The notes: a model not told the origin generated them from the letters alone. A stretch of 64,000 nt of DNA from Escherichia coli (GCA_009729775.1 GCA_009729775.1_4081.1); one strand, 5' to 3'; positions 22,547 through 63,767 are shown, counted from the stretch's first letter. Numbers and translations are program-made.

Positions 22547-23023
22547 TTATTTTAGAATGTATAAGTGTTTTTCTGCATTGACCAGACGGTGATCAATGAT
22601 TTCTTTGATAACGTTCCAGTTACCGCCGCCCAAATCGGCTCCAATTTTCGGGAAATGTACATGAACATCTCGATCAACTTTACAAAAATAATTTAGATGT
22701 TTGAACACATCGTCAATTGCATCATAACTGACATATTTAGCACCGTCATTACCGTACATTTTTTGGGTAATACAGTTTGCAATAATCAAATTATCGTTAA
22801 TTGCTGAATATGCAATTTGTCCAATTCTAAGAAATCCCATTTCCTTTTCATATGCTTTATAATCATCATATGCCATTGGATAACGATTTCTTAGTTCTTT
22901 TGCAAAACCTGAACCCATTTTACCCTGTGCGTTACAACCATGAGCAATTATATGTAATGCATTTTGATCATCGGTAACAGTACTGAACAATTCAAACAGA
23001 TTACCTCTGTGTTCATGTATCAT
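22547..23023 (-). CDS. macro-domain (ADP-ribose binding/processing) protein
   Basis: 158 aa; HGCNAQGKMGSGFAKEL and FPKIGADLGGGNW resemble macro-domain N-x-N-x-G-G-G and FP-x-I-G-x-G motifs. Confidence 0.6.
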   Translation of the reverse strand: MIHEHRGNLFELFSTVTDDQNALHIIAHGCNAQGKMGSGFAKELRNRYPMAYDDYKAYEKEMGFLRIGQIAYSAINDNLIIANCITQKMYGNDGAKYVSYDAIDDVFKHLNYFCKVDRDVHVHFPKIGADLGGGNWNVIKEIIDHRLVNAEKHLYILK

Positions 23024-23071
23024 TATATTCTCCGAAAAGAAAGGACTCTTTTACAGAGTCCTTATTTTAAA

Positions 23072-23360: not shown

Positions 23361-23612
23361 TTATTTAGGGTTGCCAGAAACCTTCACATATTTGATAAAT
23401 GCCAAAATATCATCTTTACTAAAAGATTTTACAATAAATTCGACAGCCGAATCATACTGTTCTTGTTTAGATAGATATTCTTTCATTTTGTTAATTTTAA
23501 TCTGGGCTTTTTCTTTAGCTATTGAAATATCAGGAATTTTGAACTCTACTCCCAACGTATCAGCTAGTTGTTTTGCACGAGATGATACTTTTTCAATATC
23601 CATTAGTTCCAA
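23361..23612 (-). CDS. hypothetical protein (83 aa)
   Basis: ORF in track. Confidence 0.45.
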   Translation of the reverse strand: MELMDIEKVSSRAKQLADTLGVEFKIPDISIAKEKAQIKINKMKEYLSKQEQYDSAVEFIVKSFSKDDILAFIKYVKVSGNPK

Positions 23613-23851
23613 CGACCTTCTTTAAGACCTTCAATAAATCCAGTACAACCACCTGGTACATAAATGTCATTTACGAAAATTTGAGGAACTTGACGAACTG
23701 GTTCACCACAAATTTCAGACAGTTTTGAACCATCGATACCTTCAGCAACAATATCTACAAACTCCATTTCAAATTTATTTTGTTCACATACAGCTTTTGC
23801 AGTGTCGCAAAATTTACAACCAGTCTTGCGACCATAAATTTTAACTTTCAT
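23603..23851 (-). CDS. nrdC: glutaredoxin / NrdC-like thioredoxin
   Basis: 82 aa; CKFC redox motif near N-terminus and VPQIF; resembles T4 NrdC. Confidence 0.8.
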   Translation of the reverse strand: MKVKIYGRKTGCKFCDTAKAVCEQNKFEMEFVDIVAEGIDGSKLSEICGEPVRQVPQIFVNDIYVPGGCTGFIEGLKEGRWN

Positions 23852-23852
23852 G

Positions 23853-24254
23853 TTATTTCCTTCTATTTCTTTGAAAAGCTTTAACAGCTTTAATAATACT
23901 GTTACACATTCGTTCAGTCAAATACTTTTGACATTCTCGTACATCAATGTACATGAACTTATCCAATTCTGGATGACTCTTACCATATCTATTAGTGTAA
24001 GTACTTTTACAAACTAATTCATCTGGTATTGGTTTGTCTTTGGCAGTATAAAAGAAAAGTACTAACCTTTTTCCCTTTCTATAGGATACATCACCAAGAA
24101 ACAGAAGATCATCTTCATCGATTTCGTATCCTGTCTCTTCGAAACATTCACGTACAGCAGCTTCTTTGAAAGTTTCATTACCCTCAGCTTTCCCTTTAGG
24201 TAAATCCCAATGATTCTGTCCGTGTTGTATGTCCGATAAGTATCTGACCATCAC
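23853..24254 (-). CDS. Nudix hydrolase
   Basis: 133 aa; canonical Nudix box GKAEGNETFKEAAVRECFEETGY. Confidence 0.85.
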   Translation of the reverse strand: MMVRYLSDIQHGQNHWDLPKGKAEGNETFKEAAVRECFEETGYEIDEDDLLFLGDVSYRKGKRLVLFFYTAKDKPIPDELVCKSTYTNRYGKSHPELDKFMYIDVRECQKYLTERMCNSIIKAVKAFQRNRRK

Positions 24255-24362: not shown

Positions 24363-25475
24363 TTAGAACATTTGTTTGATTGCTTCGTAACGAAGTTCAC
24401 AAACAAAATCACGAATTTCTGACGTTTCAAGTTCACCATCTTTGACCATTTGCTGAATATCAGGCAATTCAACATCAGTATAACGATCATAAACTTTAAT
24501 AATTAGATCTTCAAGTTCTAAATCAATTTCTTTTCGCAAAATGAAGTATTCCAAAACTTTATAAAGGAATTCTTCACCTCCGTTATTTTTAATATTCATA
24601 TCCAATAAAATATTACCCATTTCAATAGGGGTCTTTTTACGGAATGTTTTGATATCATCACGGAAACGTTTGATATAATTACTAAATTTAACATACTTAA
24701 CTGGAACTTTAATAGCACCGTTAAGTACTGAATCATTATTTACTTCTTCATTTTCAAGAAGAATAGACCACAGAAAATATGGTTTATATACATCCGTACA
24801 GTTCTCTGCAATATAATCAATAAGGTCTAAATTCTTTTTGGTCAAAGATGTATTAAACACCTTTTCGTAATAACCAAATTTACTTAGCGTCTTAAGGAAC
24901 TTTGCAGGCTTTTCTTCGGAAAATGCTTTTTCGAATTCCACAAAAACACGGTCAGGAACAAGATGATTTAGTTCACCACTATTGACCATTCCAATAGCGA
25001 GTTCCTCAGTGCTTTCATGGATAGTAAAGTCTGAATAACGAGTAGCAAATCGAGCAAGACGTAACACGCGTAATGGATCTTCTTTAAAATGGTCAGAAAC
25101 ATGACGTAGTATCTTGTTCTTGATATCAGCTTTACCACCGTATGGATCGATGTGAATTTGTAGTACTGGATCATACGCAATTGCATTAATTGTAAGGTCA
25201 CGGCGATACAAATCTTGTTCTAGTGTTACGCCTTTTGTATCCACTTCAAAGCCACCATATCCAGTACCAGTTTTACGCTCAGTACGGGCTAATGCGTGTT
25301 CATTACCTTCTGGACTTAGATATACTGGGAAATCCTTACCTACTTGCTTATAGCCAATACTTTGCAAGTACTTAAGATCAGATTCGGATGCACCAACAAT
25401 GACATAATCTTTGTCTTTTGCACGGATGCCCATTAAACGGTCACGGACGTAACCGCCAACCAAATACTTTTTCAT
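24363..25475 (-). CDS. CCA-adding tRNA nucleotidyltransferase / poly(A)-polymerase head-domain protein
   Basis: 370 aa; N-terminal LVGGYVRD...DKDY signature of class II CCA enzymes. Confidence 0.8.
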   Translation of the reverse strand: MKKYLVGGYVRDRLMGIRAKDKDYVIVGASESDLKYLQSIGYKQVGKDFPVYLSPEGNEHALARTERKTGTGYGGFEVDTKGVTLEQDLYRRDLTINAIAYDPVLQIHIDPYGGKADIKNKILRHVSDHFKEDPLRVLRLARFATRYSDFTIHESTEELAIGMVNSGELNHLVPDRVFVEFEKAFSEEKPAKFLKTLSKFGYYEKVFNTSLTKKNLDLIDYIAENCTDVYKPYFLWSILLENEEVNNDSVLNGAIKVPVKYVKFSNYIKRFRDDIKTFRKKTPIEMGNILLDMNIKNNGGEEFLYKVLEYFILRKEIDLELEDLIIKVYDRYTDVELPDIQQMVKDGELETSEIRDFVCELRYEAIKQMF

Positions 25476-27074: not shown

Positions 27075-27407
27075 TTACTCTTCGTTTTCTGTCAAATCAT
27101 CAAGAACTGGGTGTTCTGGATGGTTTCGGCGGTGTAATTTAATGCTTTTGTCTTTACTGAATACAGTTTCCATTTTTTCAAATGAATCACCAATTGCTTT
27201 GTATAAATCTGCTGCATCGGCAGTAACTGATTTACTACCTGATGTTAGAGTCACAGAGTATTGAGACTTATGCTCTTTCTTCACATGAACTTCAATATCC
27301 ATTACAGTTGAAGTACGGAACTTTTCAAGACATTTAGCACCATCGTAAATTGCATCTTGAATTGCTGTAGTAAAATCAACATTACCTTGAATATTTAATT
27401 TTAGCAT
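27075..27407 (-). CDS. ribosome hibernation factor homolog (HPF/RaiA/YfiA family)
   Basis: 110 aa; aligns by eye along full length with E. coli HPF/RaiA as recalled (LNIxGN..TxAI..KLE...TL...A.A..D.Y.AI....K.E..L.K.K). Confidence 0.7.
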   Translation of the reverse strand: MLKLNIQGNVDFTTAIQDAIYDGAKCLEKFRTSTVMDIEVHVKKEHKSQYSVTLTSGSKSVTADAADLYKAIGDSFEKMETVFSKDKSIKLHRRNHPEHPVLDDLTENEE

Positions 27408-33511: not shown

Positions 33512-33952
33512 TTATTGTAAAACTTTAAGTTTGTAAAGTACTCCTTCAACAAAACTCATAATATCTTCTAATGTGTTTACACTGCCGTAATCACCCGATT
33601 CTTCAAGCATATCATGAATTGCTCTGCATTGCTCAACATATTCTTCAAGAATTGGTACACAATCTTCAATTGGTGTAAAACGATAACTATTACCAGTCCC
33701 AACTTGCAAAGCACCACGATTATTCATGATACCTTCAACAAATGCGTCTACATATTCTGGTAATTCTTTATATAGTTCATCTAATTGTAAATGCTTTGTA
33801 TAAAAATGACATTGTAAGTGCCAGTTATGTGCAGCAGAACTTAAAAACAAACTATTTTCAATAAAAGTTAATAGTACTTCATCATATGAATTATCTTCTT
33901 CAGTACTTCCGATAAAGTCCATTACGTGTCGTAAATCATTAATATCTTCCAT
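33512..33952 (-). CDS. hypothetical protein (146 aa)
   Basis: ORF in track. Confidence 0.5.
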   Translation of the reverse strand: MEDINDLRHVMDFIGSTEEDNSYDEVLLTFIENSLFLSSAAHNWHLQCHFYTKHLQLDELYKELPEYVDAFVEGIMNNRGALQVGTGNSYRFTPIEDCVPILEEYVEQCRAIHDMLEESGDYGSVNTLEDIMSFVEGVLYKLKVLQ

Positions 33953-60331: not shown

Positions 60332-61771
60332 TTACATATTTTCTTCAGCAAATTCAGCCAGTGGTGAACGAACAACACCTTCTAGTTCGATGACACGACA
60401 ACCTGCCCAGTCTTTAAACTTCTCAGTTACATATGTCAAACCACTGTTAACAGGACTAATAAACTTACTGTCAATCTGACTCAAGTTACCCATAATTACT
60501 ACTTTACAGTTTAACCCTGCTCGTGTCAAGATGGTTTTTGCTTGTGCAGGTGTAATGTTTTGGAATTCATCAACTACTAGAATAGTGTTGGTGAATGAAC
60601 GTCCACGTACAAAGTTTAGTGCTTTAAATTGAATAACATTACGTTTCATAATCTCTTCAATACTACCTTGTGGATTGGCATCATCTTTATGAAGAAACTC
60701 TAACGCATCAATCGCGGCTCCACAGAATGGAATCACTTTTTCTGCTTCTGAACCTGGCAAGAAACCAATATCTTCAAACTGTGAGTCTTGAGTTTTAGAG
60801 AAGATGATTCGGTCGTATTTACGTTTTTCCAGTACTAATTCTAATGCAGTAGCAATTGTAATTAGTGTTTTACCAGTACCAGCAGAACCTAGCAGTACTG
60901 TTAGATGTACATCAGGATCGAGAATACTGTTGATGGCGAGTGCTTGTTGGATATTCTTTGCTTTAATATCCCATACTTTAGCACGTAAAGCCACTGATTG
61001 TCCAATGTCTTGGAATACCAAAATATCTTCTGGTGTTAGTGTTCCATCATCTTCCTCAATTGCTGATTGTCCTTCGTACACAAATAATACGTCAGCATCA
61101 TCATATAGATAATCACCGATGCATAGATTTTGTGGAAGCAGATGTTCAATCAAGCTTTTAGAAATGTAATGATACAAACGACGACCAACTTGTTCGGATT
61201 GAATATTAGTATTGGTTAAGTTGCTGTATACTTCCCAAAAATTGATTTCCAGATGGTGTTGACCAATGTGAATCAAATCACTATCACCAATAACAATATC
61301 ATGGCGATAATCTTGTACCTCGACACCATAACTTAGTGCTTTGATACGCATGTTGATATCACGAGTTACCAGTACTGATTCTGTTGCTAAAGCTACCAGA
61401 ATGATTTTATCATCAGGTACAGTACTTTTGAGAAGGGTTTGAACTTTCTCTTCTGTACCTTTAGTACGAATTAGTGCCTCAGCTTCTTCGTTTGTAATAA
61501 CAAACAATTTGCTATCAGGATTCATATTGGTATGAACATCAGCAATATTAACACCAGTACTACTAATCTCGTCATGTGATGCATCTGCAATAATTGCTTC
61601 AATGTTACGAATAGCAACACGAGCATCGCGTGAAACATCTACATTACGACTCTTAATCGAATCTAATTCTTCCAGTACTGTAAATGGTAGAATGATTGCA
61701 GCACCATCAAAAGCAATAGATGCATTAGGGTCAGATAGTAGTACGTTTGTGTCAATTGTATATTTTTTCAT
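60332..61771 (-). CDS. phoH: PhoH-like ATPase with N-terminal PIN domain
   Basis: 479 aa; PIN-like N-terminus (YTIDTNVLL); Walker A LLGSAGTGKTL; Walker B VVDEFQN. Confidence 0.85.
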   Translation of the reverse strand: MKKYTIDTNVLLSDPNASIAFDGAAIILPFTVLEELDSIKSRNVDVSRDARVAIRNIEAIIADASHDEISSTGVNIADVHTNMNPDSKLFVITNEEAEALIRTKGTEEKVQTLLKSTVPDDKIILVALATESVLVTRDINMRIKALSYGVEVQDYRHDIVIGDSDLIHIGQHHLEINFWEVYSNLTNTNIQSEQVGRRLYHYISKSLIEHLLPQNLCIGDYLYDDADVLFVYEGQSAIEEDDGTLTPEDILVFQDIGQSVALRAKVWDIKAKNIQQALAINSILDPDVHLTVLLGSAGTGKTLITIATALELVLEKRKYDRIIFSKTQDSQFEDIGFLPGSEAEKVIPFCGAAIDALEFLHKDDANPQGSIEEIMKRNVIQFKALNFVRGRSFTNTILVVDEFQNITPAQAKTILTRAGLNCKVVIMGNLSQIDSKFISPVNSGLTYVTEKFKDWAGCRVIELEGVVRSPLAEFAEENM

Positions 61772-61831
61772 AAAACATCCTTGAGTTATGAGTACATCCT
61801 TGTACTCGACTAATGTTATTGACTCGGATTA

Positions 61832-62134
61832 TTACATATTTGGTTCGTATTCAACATAGCAACGTGAACCTCGAACCTTTTCTTCCCAGCACTCCTGGTA
61901 AACAAGTTGACCAATTGAAACTGGTTCTCTTGATAGTCCATTACGTACTTCACCACTTTGGGTTTTATACATGAATGAACATTTGGACTCGCTACATTGT
62001 CCTAAACTAACAACTTCTGCGGTATTGTAGTGAATGTTGGTACGCTTAGTGTTCTCGTGATACTGTCCGAACCAAAGAACTCCTGCACCTAACAGAACAG
62101 TACAAATAAGACTTTTGATGTGTGTTTGAATCAT
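61832..62134 (-). CDS. secreted/membrane Cys-containing protein (100 aa)
   Basis: N-terminal hydrophobic segment; six Cys. Confidence 0.45.
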   Translation of the reverse strand: MIQTHIKSLICTVLLGAGVLWFGQYHENTKRTNIHYNTAEVVSLGQCSESKCSFMYKTQSGEVRNGLSREPVSIGQLVYQECWEEKVRGSRCYVEYEPNM

Positions 62135-62451
62135 AATGCGTTAAATCCATTGTTTAAGTATGTTTCAATATTAATTTTACCAACAGGATTACTACTGTGA
62201 ACAAAGTACTCAAACGGTTCTTTAATATTATTATCAAACATATAATCAATAAGAAACTTAGCAAAAGAATATCCAGTCTTTTCGTCTTCGCTCACATCAC
62301 CCAAGTCATGGTCGAATGATACAAATGCTGGAATTCCATTTTCAATAACATATTCACATGCACTTTTAAAGTCACGACATACCACCATATCTTGGTTTGG
62401 ATAATATAGATTTGCATCACGAATATCATCCAAAAACATTGCGTAAGACAT
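62131..62451 (-). CDS. hypothetical protein (106 aa)
   Basis: ORF in track; 4-nt overlap with neighbour. Confidence 0.45.
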   Translation of the reverse strand: MSYAMFLDDIRDANLYYPNQDMVVCRDFKSACEYVIENGIPAFVSFDHDLGDVSEDEKTGYSFAKFLIDYMFDNNIKEPFEYFVHSSNPVGKINIETYLNNGFNAL

Positions 62452-62460
62452 GTTAAACTC

Positions 62461-63012
62461 CTATAGATAACTAATTAGTAAGTTTTCTTTTTGAATCAGA
62501 TACTCCAATTCTTGTTTTGCTGTACCGATGAAGTTCTGTGTCATAAGATTATTATATCCCGCTTCTCGATTTTGTCCCTTAGAATAACGAGAAATATGAC
62601 ATAAATTTACACCAGCAACTTCAGCACTCGCATGTTTAGCATTAGTGTATCCATCTCTAATGTGTTTCAACTCGTCATAGCTTACTTCATAGCTAAAACT
62701 ATGACTGTTTGCACCTGGGTAAATTTCAAAAGTTTTGAGTGGTCGAAGATGGGAAACAAAAATATTGTAATCCATTTCTTCTTGAACTTCACGACGCAAC
62801 GCATCTTCTAGTGAGATATCAGTACTTTCAACTGTTCCACCACATCCTCCTAGAAGTCCATCCCAACGTAATTGTAGTAATACCAGATTTACTTCTGGTA
62901 TATCATTTAACTCATAGTTTTTGTAAGGGTTGCATTTTCTTGCAAAGAAATAGCAAAATACAAAATTTGCACGTGAGCCATATTCACCAAAGGGAACTTC
63001 TTTAACACTCAT
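62461..63012 (-). CDS. Nudix-like hydrolase (divergent Nudix box)
   Basis: 183 aa; GGCGGTVE...RREVQEEMD approximates the Nudix box with a 3-residue insertion. Confidence 0.5.
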   Translation of the reverse strand: MSVKEVPFGEYGSRANFVFCYFFARKCNPYKNYELNDIPEVNLVLLQLRWDGLLGGCGGTVESTDISLEDALRREVQEEMDYNIFVSHLRPLKTFEIYPGANSHSFSYEVSYDELKHIRDGYTNAKHASAEVAGVNLCHISRYSKGQNREAGYNNLMTQNFIGTAKQELEYLIQKENLLISYL

Positions 63013-63767
63013 TTCATACGTTCCTTAATTATAGTCTCTAGATGTGGTATTGCTTTGGTTGCTGGCTTGATAACTTTTTCATTAAACAAAAAATCATTAT
63101 CATTTTTACGAATGTTAACATTAACACTATAACATGGTAATGCTGCTGCTAATCTCGACCATACCAGTACTGTATCGCTACTACCAATTACAATAACTGT
63201 ATCATTTTCATTAAGAGATTTCAACACATTATTTCGTTCTTCGTAAATTGGTAAGCGTATACCATCAACATAACGATGATATTCTCCAATCATTACTACA
63301 TTTGGTTTAGCAAAAACATCATGTTTTGGTATGTATGGTTCGTATCCGCAGTTAATAACATTATAATCATCAGAATTGATACTATAATTTTCAATAACTT
63401 CACACAAGTTTCCATGAAGTTTAAGCTCATGACCACCAATACGAGTATAAAGATCGTCCATGTTAGAAGTCATATGAAGGAAGCAATCACCATATTGATC
63501 TTCTAACGATTTTATAAAATAATGCATTGCATTTGGTTCGCATTGTCCCAATTTTACACGTAATGTATTATAGAAAGAATGAACAACATGATATTTTGTA
63601 GTTAAACTAGCAATGTTACATACATCATTAATTTTAAATGTATCCCACAAACCATCATCAAATCGAAAAGGTTCCATCCCACTTTCAACGGAAAGTCCTG
63701 CACCTGATATAATCAGTAATCGTTTTTTACCTTCATTGCTTATAAATTTTTCTGATATCATATTCAA
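63009..63767 (-). CDS. short Sir2-like (sirtuin-family) protein
   Basis: 252 aa; GAGLSVESGMEPFR, LHGN, VVMIGE and VIGSS blocks in sirtuin order; zinc-ribbon Cys pairs not evident. Confidence 0.6.
   Translation of the reverse strand: MNMISEKFISNEGKKRLLIISGAGLSVESGMEPFRFDDGLWDTFKINDVCNIASLTTKYHVVHSFYNTLRVKLGQCEPNAMHYFIKSLEDQYGDCFLHMTSNMDDLYTRIGGHELKLHGNLCEVIENYSINSDDYNVINCGYEPYIPKHDVFAKPNVVMIGEYHRYVDGIRLPIYEERNNVLKSLNENDTVIVIGSSDTVLVWSRLAAALPCYSVNVNIRKNDNDFLFNEKVIKPATKAIPHLETIIKERMK

Follow-up and report, generated by a model that had tools for sequence, protein, structure and literature searches.

The macrodomain gene and its neighbourhood

The window, a 64,000-nucleotide stretch of DNA recorded under Escherichia coli (GCA_009729775.1), carries a short macrodomain gene on its minus strand. 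The 4 kb around this gene match Escherichia phage 121Q at 99.5% identity and PBECO4, slurp01, Sharanji and other phages at ~99%; 121Q itself is an Asteriusvirus, a jumbo myovirus of 348 kb. The following features lie in this part of the window:

22547..23023, minus strand: gene for the 158-aa macrodomain protein, orthologous to gp544 of phage 121Q; start codon (ATG) at 23023, stop codon 22547-22549
23041..23063, minus strand: terminator-like hairpin, AAGGACTCT-GTAAA-AGAGTCCTT then TCTTTTC, separating the macrodomain gene from the small ORF upstream of it
23603..23851, minus strand: glutaredoxin (Pfam Glutaredoxin 2.1e-08), syntenic neighbour
23853..24254, minus strand: NudE-like Nudix hydrolase (Pfam NUDIX 1.1e-12; 38% identity to T4 NudE, E 3e-17), syntenic
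24363..25475, minus strand: CCA-adding tRNA nucleotidyltransferase (Pfam PolyA_pol 7.3e-19, PolyA_pol_RNAbd 4.4e-08), syntenic

A macro-domain protein had been placed at 22547-23023 in a preliminary description of this DNA, and the ORF spans exactly these positions, with a GGAG ribosome-binding site 6 nt 5' of its ATG; the PHROG, PDB profile and fold matches given below agree with that identification. We confirm that the ORF is real and encodes a well-conserved macrodomain protein of a 121Q-like jumbo coliphage. This identity is already carried by the public annotation, where 121Q gp544 is a [quoted passage not shown] and, in some records, a "phosphatase". The gene is present in a single copy within the window and no other copy was found in the further 121Q regions searched. 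Comparison with the 89%-identical orthologue of phage vB_Ec-M-J gives a dN/dS of 0.12, a substitution pattern which shows that the gene is under purifying selection.

The gene order runs from lysozyme and the ribosome hibernation factor HPF, through others, to the CCA-adding enzyme, the NudE-like Nudix hydrolase, glutaredoxin, two small ORFs and the macrodomain gene, and continues with three small ORFs, a gp13-like neck gene, a dNMP kinase and the tail sheath gene. The same order is kept in a metagenomic relative and in Xanthomonas phage XaC1, whose macro protein is 45% identical and whose block adds YqeY and a weak PTH2 match; in one relative the NUDIX and Glutaredoxin domains are fused (L007:4715-5392). 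The neighbourhood is a deeply conserved block and not an anti-defence island. The preliminary description had called it a nucleotide-metabolism block, which fits the dNMP kinase, glutaredoxin, Nudix hydrolase and CCA-adding enzyme nearby but not the neck, tail sheath and tail tube genes that lie there too. Elsewhere in the family, the macrodomain homologue of a T5-like metagenomic contig adjoins Gad2 (anti-Gabija), a cpYpsA SLOG protein and an HD domain protein.

The hairpin divides the macrodomain gene from the Nudix-glutaredoxin genes; within 17 nt of it come the GGAG ribosome-binding site and then the ATG. Its stem (AGGACTC...GAGTCCT) and T-run are kept in vB_Ec-M-J and in Salmonella phage SE_PL with loops that vary, and it may function as a terminator or as an RNA-stabilising element. 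Matches to sigma-70-like promoters were no more frequent than chance (19 versus 20.4 expected) and the T4 late motif TATAAATA was nearly absent.

Fold, class and active site

The protein matches PHROG 335 with an E-value of 1e-45, and as a single sequence it already finds solved macrodomains (BT1257, 1.3e-15; SCO6735, 1.6e-11). A family profile built from 42 homologous sequences, which served both for the searches and for the AlphaFold2 model, was compared with solved structures and gave BT1257 at 5.7e-28, SCO6735 at 3e-21, Poa1p at 1e-16, the DarG proteins of Mycobacterium and Thermus at 6e-14 and human TARG1 at 1.4e-12; no MacroD/YmdB match was returned by this search at E<=0.01. The Pfam Macro model (PF01661) scores 16.4 bits, below its gathering score of 22, and many of the homologues carry a precomputed PF01661 match.

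The AlphaFold2 model (pLDDT 94.3, pTM 0.90) has the three-layer alpha/beta/alpha fold with a central mixed beta-sheet that is expected of a macrodomain. When it was searched against the PDB with Foldseek, the best 17 matches were all BT1257, SCO6735, Poa1p, DarG or TARG1, and nearly all of the 50 listed were macrodomains. The query-normalised TM-scores are 0.84 for BT1257 and 0.72-0.76 for SCO6735, DarG and TARG1, with Poa1p at ~0.70. MacroD/YmdB and coronavirus macrodomains rank lower, with TM-scores up to 0.70 at 12-16% identity; YmdB (5cb3), for instance, stands at rank 25 with a TM-score of 0.67 and 16% identity. The best matches in the viral structure library BFVD include "tk.4" of a T4-like phage (TM 0.83). 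Both the profile search and the structural model, the checks proposed in the preliminary description, place the protein among macrodomains; the lack of a macro fold or of the Gly-rich loop had been named there as evidence to the contrary, and here the fold is predicted with confidence and two such loops are present. On these profile matches and the model, we assign the protein to the TARG1/DarG/SCO6735 ("ALC1-like") macrodomain class and to its Gln-type (SCO6735-like) subclass. The active-site positions are as follows:

Key residues: H28, G29 and N31; N83, T86 and Q87; K96 in the mobile loop
Gly-rich loop 1: G34-K-M-G37-S38-G39
Gly-rich loop 2: G128-A129-D130-L131-G132-G133-G134, in which Asp130 replaces the usual second Gly

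In an alignment of 120 homologues H28, N31, Q87 and G128 are essentially invariant (N31 and Q87 occur in 120/120), and profile alignments match the four to SCO6735 H24, N27, Q85 and G126. Q87 occupies the position of TARG1 Lys84 and DarG Lys80, where the conserved Asn (N31) would hold it in place, and the TARG1 Lys84/Asp125 dyad is missing, with Q87 and G132 in its place. SCO6735 likewise has Gln85 in the Lys position and lacks both the TARG1 dyad and DarG Lys80 (PMC9411070; PMC5087735), and its N27S and Q85A substitutions abolish thymidine-ADPr hydrolysis (PMC9411070). From this Gln-type active site we predict that the macro protein is catalytically competent. Among the features of SCO6735 that are not shared is its Val25, a position (Val/Ile) that has been called SCO6735-specific and acts via its backbone; it is an invariant Gly29 in our protein.

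The missing dyad bears on one alternative, in which the macro protein would be a protein mono-ADP-ribosylhydrolase that reverses Glu/Asp-linked modification by host toxins or phage ADP-ribosyltransferases. SCO6735 and TARG1 do also remove Glu-linked ADP-ribose from proteins (PMC5087735; PMC9411070), and D130 in the catalytic loop recalls the catalytic Asp125 of TARG1, which lies two residues further along. However, the TARG1 dyad as such is absent, the annotation of the window and of the 121Q regions inspected (about half of the genome, up to ~100 kb and ~216-281 kb) lists no ADP-ribosyltransferase, and no phage member of the family has genetic evidence for such a role. We find this alternative quite improbable.

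Asp130 stands at the position of SCO6735 Gly128 and, by our own alignment, of TARG1 Gly123. Among the 120 homologues this column holds G in 55, D in 42, A in 9, V in 8, E in 3, and Y and T in 1 each, and the acidic residues occur almost solely in sequences that are at least 50% identical to the macro protein, which make up the Rak2/121Q-like jumbo-phage clade. T4 Tk.4, BT1257 and SCO6735 have Gly here and the active PhiKZ AdfM has Ala. Judged from the alignment, D/E130 is a derived, clade-wide change beside an active site that has otherwise stayed fixed; the mobility of the loop may make the change tolerable, or it may be the sign of a change in substrate.

A further possibility is that D130 has disabled hydrolysis altogether, leaving a non-catalytic ADP-ribose binder or sponge, or an inhibitor that acts on DarT by binding. 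The acidic residue does stand where a G128E mutation "partially abolished" the activity of SCO6735 (PMC5087735), and SCO6735 that has lost its catalytic activity continues to inhibit DarT by interacting with it (PMC9411070). Against this, the loss of activity in G128E was only partial, the residue in active PhiKZ AdfM is not Gly either, the other catalytic residues are invariant in the 120 homologues, the dN/dS is low, and the macro protein lacks the C-terminal DarT-binding domain of DarG. It would therefore seem very unlikely that the protein is a mere binder.

Relatives of known activity and the probable substrate

Scored with the family profile, BT1257 reaches 99 bits, T4 Tk.4 91, SCO6735 78 and PhiKZ AdfM 49. 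T4 Tk.4 is 30% identical to the macro protein over 123 residues (E 2e-12) and, like it, is a stand-alone protein of ~155 aa with the same partial match to DarG models; the motifs HGCN, MGSG, N..TQ (Gln-type) and IGAx.GxGNW are common to both. Tk.4 differs in having Gly for Asp130, a shorter mobile loop after the Gln, and a gene that lies in the tk-vs-regB early region, and the genetic evidence is from T4 only. T4 without its other anti-DarT factors is still resistant to DarTG2, which predicted a further factor (PMC11825919). On a host that expresses DarTG2, T4 was found to require just one gene, tk.4, whose clean knockout sensitised the phage and which was named adfM (anti-DarT factor macrodomain); enzymatic removal of ADP-ribose was inferred in that preprint rather than demonstrated (bioRxiv 10.1101/2025.11.20.689424).

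Biochemical activity has been reported for PhiKZ gp104, independently named AdfM, which strips DarT2-made ADP-ribose from a TNTC ssDNA oligonucleotide and rescues DarT2 toxicity (PMC13309987). It too is a phage macrodomain that stands alone, belongs to this class and keeps the conserved Asn. In contrast to the macro protein, it has a Lys-type (DarG-like) site, shares only 20% identity at its 49 bits, and is imported into a phage nucleus, a structure that 121Q-like phages are not known to build.

The nearest solved structures are those of SCO6735 and BT1257 (PDB 5E3B, 2FG1; TM 0.76-0.84), which like the macro protein are without the TARG1 Lys/Asp dyad. They differ from it in being bacterial and basic (partial-sequence pI 8.7-9.9 versus 6.5 for the macro protein) and in having Val/Ile25 and Gly128 instead of Gly29 and Asp130; BT1257 is from Bacteroides, and SCO6735 is induced by UV and DNA damage in its own host, Streptomyces coelicolor. 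The pI is no guide to DNA binding here, as both validated phage AdfMs are acidic. SCO6735 frees DNA of thymidine-linked ADP-ribose and protects E. coli against DarT (PMC9411070), and thymine-linked ADPr is reversed by TARG1, DarG and SCO6735 (PMC9411070; PMC13036486).

The DarG antitoxin of DarTG2 (PDB 5M31, 5M3I) has a homologous N-terminal macrodomain, with the profile E-value of 6e-14 given above. The PADLOC DarG model (PDLC02990) matches the macro protein at 1.2e-10 in its macro part only (positions 17-136 of 329), and the NCBIfam DarG model (NF048014) matches over positions 18-139 of 338 with 32.9 bits against a cut-off of 250. The macro protein differs from DarG in lacking the C-terminal DarT-binding domain, in having Gln for the catalytic Lys80 and in having no DarT neighbour; no DarT gene lies next to the macrodomain gene, and its flanking ORFs encode 72-125 aa without a Pfam match. 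A true DarG, or a toxin-antitoxin pair, is ruled out by the absent C-terminal domain, the absent adjacent toxin and a score far under the cut-off. Rather, the protein is an uncharacterised addition to the phage AdfM-type, SCO6735-like macrodomain hydrolases.

The preliminary description had suggested that a phage-encoded macrodomain could reverse a host defence based on ADP-ribosylation, of the DarT type, and this has become the best-supported reading, to which we lean on account of the class and of the homology to Tk.4. Specifically, the macro protein is somewhat likely to be an orphan, antitoxin-like DNA ADP-ribosylglycohydrolase of the AdfM kind that counters host DarT2. Beneath this reading lie the fold, the class, the conserved active site, the homology to Tk.4 and SCO6735, the purifying selection and the single copy in the window; its substrate would be thymine-linked ADP-ribose on DNA and its target DarT2, with a possible hand-off to a Nudix hydrolase. 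In an infected E. coli with DarTG2, DarT2 would ADP-ribosylate thymidines in TNTC motifs of phage single-stranded DNA and block replication. The phage macrodomain would then hold the ADP-ribose via its two Gly-rich loops, N31 and Q87 would position the distal ribose, and the thymine-ribose bond would be hydrolysed. Intact DNA would thereby be restored and replication could proceed, while the free ADP-ribose could be degraded by the nearby NudE-like Nudix hydrolase. T4 NudE is active on ADP-ribose according to the T4 sequence record, and its homologue here could consume the ADP-ribose that the macrodomain would set free.

Two things make us favour DarT2 as the target: the protein falls within the TARG1/DarG/SCO6735 class, and T4 Tk.4, the reported anti-DarTG2 factor AdfM, is a homologue of it. 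Also counted in favour are the Gad2 neighbour in the T5-like contig and the dN/dS of 0.12, and the published DarTG2 experiments were done in E. coli, the host of the 121Q-like phage (bioRxiv 10.1101/2025.11.20.689424; PMC11825919). Counted against it are the identity to Tk.4 of just 28-30%, the T4 preprint's reliance on inference for enzymatic removal, and the fact that the biochemically proven PhiKZ AdfM is of the Lys type and more distant. D130 in loop 2, Gly29 at the Val25 position and the conserved gene block of a non-anti-defence character count against it as well.

The preliminary description had also raised the processing of O-acetyl-ADP-ribose generated by a Sir2-like enzyme. Such an enzyme is encoded in the window, as part of the following group of genes:

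63009-63767: Sir2-family gene (PF02146 3.7e-20; best PDB matches are CobB-type deacylases)
62461-63012: Nudt16-like Nudix gene, directly after Sir2
62131-62451: gene for a cREC "cyclic-phosphate processing receiver" domain protein, in the Sir2 module
60332-61771: gene for a PhoH-like protein, in the Sir2 module, with a 100-aa ORF between the cREC and PhoH-like genes

Beyond the presence of this CobB-type Sir2 gene, the idea that the macro protein deacetylates O-acetyl-ADP-ribose made by a phage Sir2-like deacylase would be in keeping with TARG1, which was first described as an O-acyl-ADP-ribose deacylase. However, the Sir2 gene heads a co-directional module of its own (Sir2, Nudix, cREC, PhoH-like), 40 kb from the macrodomain gene, and the macro protein falls outside the MacroD/YmdB type, to which O-acetyl-ADP-ribose deacetylases typically belong. 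The sirtuin-Nudix-cREC neighbourhood of jumbo phages has been predicted to carry out NAD-dependent RNA-end repair and is stated to be uncoupled from macro genes, the viral sirtuin clade being probably an RNA 2'-phosphate ADP-ribosyltransferase (PMC9503650). Given the 40-kb distance and the separate module, we reject a coupling to Sir2, and a role in O-acetyl-ADP-ribose processing is most improbable.

An alternative of more substance is that the macro protein processes RNA-linked or small-molecule ADPr in RNA or translation repair. Its substrates would be U-ADPr RNA, or ADP-ribose-1''-phosphate (ADPr>P-derived products) from NAD-dependent RNA-end repair, such as that of the Sir2-Nudix-cREC module, and the NudE-like Nudix hydrolase would finish the breakdown. 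The synteny with the CCA-adding enzyme, the NudE-like Nudix hydrolase and HPF, kept even in XaC1 at 45% identity, speaks for this, and the derived D130 could mean a changed substrate. TARG1, DarG and SCO6735 reverse uracil-linked ADPr on RNA as well (PMC13036486), and phage Macro domains have been argued to target mainly soluble ADPr derivatives (PMC9503650). In addition, the yeast ADP-ribose-1''-phosphate phosphatase Poa1p (PDB 6LFQ) belongs to the same class (profile 1e-16, TM 0.70) and shares the fold. We compared its residues H23, S30 and F152, chosen as those mutated in solved structures, their functional weight being taken from the PDB entry names only. H23 alone is conserved, as H28, whereas S30 is K35 and F152 is G132 in the macro protein; Poa1p also differs in having Ser at the Q87 position and a long insertion. 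An assignment as a Poa1p-type phosphatase is weakened by the unconserved equivalents of S30 and F152.

Other observations also stand against an RNA or small-molecule substrate. The active site is of the SCO6735/T4 Tk.4 type, and according to the results of one study SCO6735 is inactive on guanine-linked ADPr and on 2'-OH- and 5'-phosphate-linked nucleic-acid ADPr, although the discussion of that study is inconsistent on phosphate ends (PMC11833690). The Sir2 module is 40 kb off and has its own Nudix and cREC genes, and the conserved hairpin stands between the macrodomain gene and the Nudix-glutaredoxin genes. On balance we regard this alternative as unlikely. One version of it ties the two peculiarities of the locus together, in that the Rak2/121Q-like clade, with its D/E130 and its CCA/NudE/HPF synteny, might have re-tuned a Tk.4/SCO6735-type macrodomain to ADP-ribosylated RNA, or to a soluble ADPr-derived immune signal or toxin, instead of DNA. 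Examples of RNA targets for such an enzyme would be uracil- or adenine-linked ADPr placed on tRNA or mRNA by toxins such as CmdT-like enzymes. If this were true, the macro protein would protect the translation apparatus rather than counter DarT2, but we give the idea little credence.

Distribution of the family and significance

Relatives of the macro protein were found by tblastn in 1,785 phage records. These include T4-like phages, in which some copies are named Tk.4, and phages of Escherichia, Salmonella and Pseudomonas with sizes of ~86-99 kb and 140-155 kb. Searched against a library of 1.8 billion proteins at E<=1e-3, the family profile matched 18,966 cluster representatives; the number fell to 11,025 with a threshold of E<=1e-10 and to 1,163 with E<=1e-30. 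As for macro domains in general, 56% of jumbo phages and 41% of myoviruses are reported to have them (PMC9503650). No family member was found within positions 1-45 kb of T5, a phage that is sensitive to DarTG2. Our literature search returned no work on the macrodomain of the 121Q family or Asteriusvirus and none in which Asteriusvirus phages were tested against DarTG.

Along with the stable synteny to tRNA and translation genes, the clade-wide Asp/Glu in the phosphate-binding loop is the sole point at this locus that is not routine, and it is a possible natural experiment in the tuning of macrodomain substrates. If the macro protein does counter DarT2, the 121Q/PBECO4-like jumbo coliphages, which are considered for therapy, would carry a built-in DarTG2 countermeasure, and the practical use of this knowledge would be the prediction of host range against DarTG2-positive E. 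coli. It would also support the view that large lytic phages routinely bear orphan antitoxin-like ADP-ribosylhydrolases such as AdfN and AdfM.

Genes and a hairpin in the macrodomain block

Genes in and near the macrodomain block of Escherichia phage 121Q (L001), Xanthomonas phage XaC1 (L004) and the window
L001:26076-26408 (roughly window 27075-27407), HPF/RaiA-type ribosome hibernation factor homologue
L004:4689-5120 and L004:7091-7489, genes with a YqeY (GatB/YqeY-like) domain and a weak PTH2 (peptidyl-tRNA hydrolase) hit
L001:32513-32923 (roughly window 33512-33922), annotated [quoted passage not shown]
Window 23853-24254, NudE-like Nudix
Window 23603-23851, glutaredoxin

The HPF/RaiA homologue adjoins the lysozyme gene upstream of the CCA-adding enzyme, an arrangement that is kept in XaC1 and in L007, a metagenomic relative from Logan SRR22213601. 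Within the same syntenic block, XaC1 carries the YqeY and weak PTH2 genes as extras, which make the surroundings of the macrodomain gene look still more tRNA- and translation-related. The 121Q gene annotated as a starvation-inducible regulator has a product name identical to that of rI.-1 in the T4 record. The NudE-like Nudix and glutaredoxin are separate, adjoining genes in the window and form a single 225-aa fusion protein in L007 (4715-5392), which suggests that the two are functionally linked.

Directly upstream of the macrodomain gene (window 23041-23063, minus strand), the sequence AGGACTC...GAGTCCT forms a hairpin, and a T-run comes after it. Escherichia phage vB_Ec-M-J and Salmonella phage SE_PL have equivalent hairpins (L011:~560-582 and L012:~562-583) in which the stem is kept and the loop differs, and the element is probably an intrinsic terminator or an RNA-stability element within a long run of co-directional genes. 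The octamer of T4 late promoters, TATAAATA, is clearly depleted in the AT-rich window, where it occurs once in the whole 64 kb versus 11.3 +/- 3.6 expected from shuffles; this phage does not use TATAAATA as its late promoter.

A different setting in T5-like contigs

A macrodomain homologue with 45% identity lies in an early-type region of T5-like metagenomic contigs (L005/L006:3462-9639). Its neighbours are a protein with an HD_4 domain, a circularly permuted YpsA (SLOG) protein, a dCMP deaminase, the anti-Gabija protein Gad2 and a T5 A2-like protein. These surroundings, quite unlike the jumbo-phage synteny, look like an anti-defence region.

The Sir2-headed module

Five co-directional genes form a Sir2-headed module at window 60332-63767 on the minus strand.

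Genes of the module
63009-63767, minus, Sir2
62461-63012, minus, Nudt16-like Nudix
62131-62451, minus, cREC cyclic-phosphate-processing receiver domain
61832-62134, minus, 100-aa ORF
60332-61771, minus, PhoH-like protein (479 aa)

Window coordinates projected from the segment at 21-25 kb, which is 99.5% identical, miss this module by ~1.4 kb relative to NC_025447.1 (121Q), an offset that implies at least one indel relative to 121Q somewhere in window ~25000-60000. Our literature search found no experimental characterisation of the Sir2-Nudix-cREC-PhoH module. Its gene content fits the sirtuin-centred neighbourhood for which Iyer et al. 2022 predicted a role in NAD-dependent repair of RNA ends.
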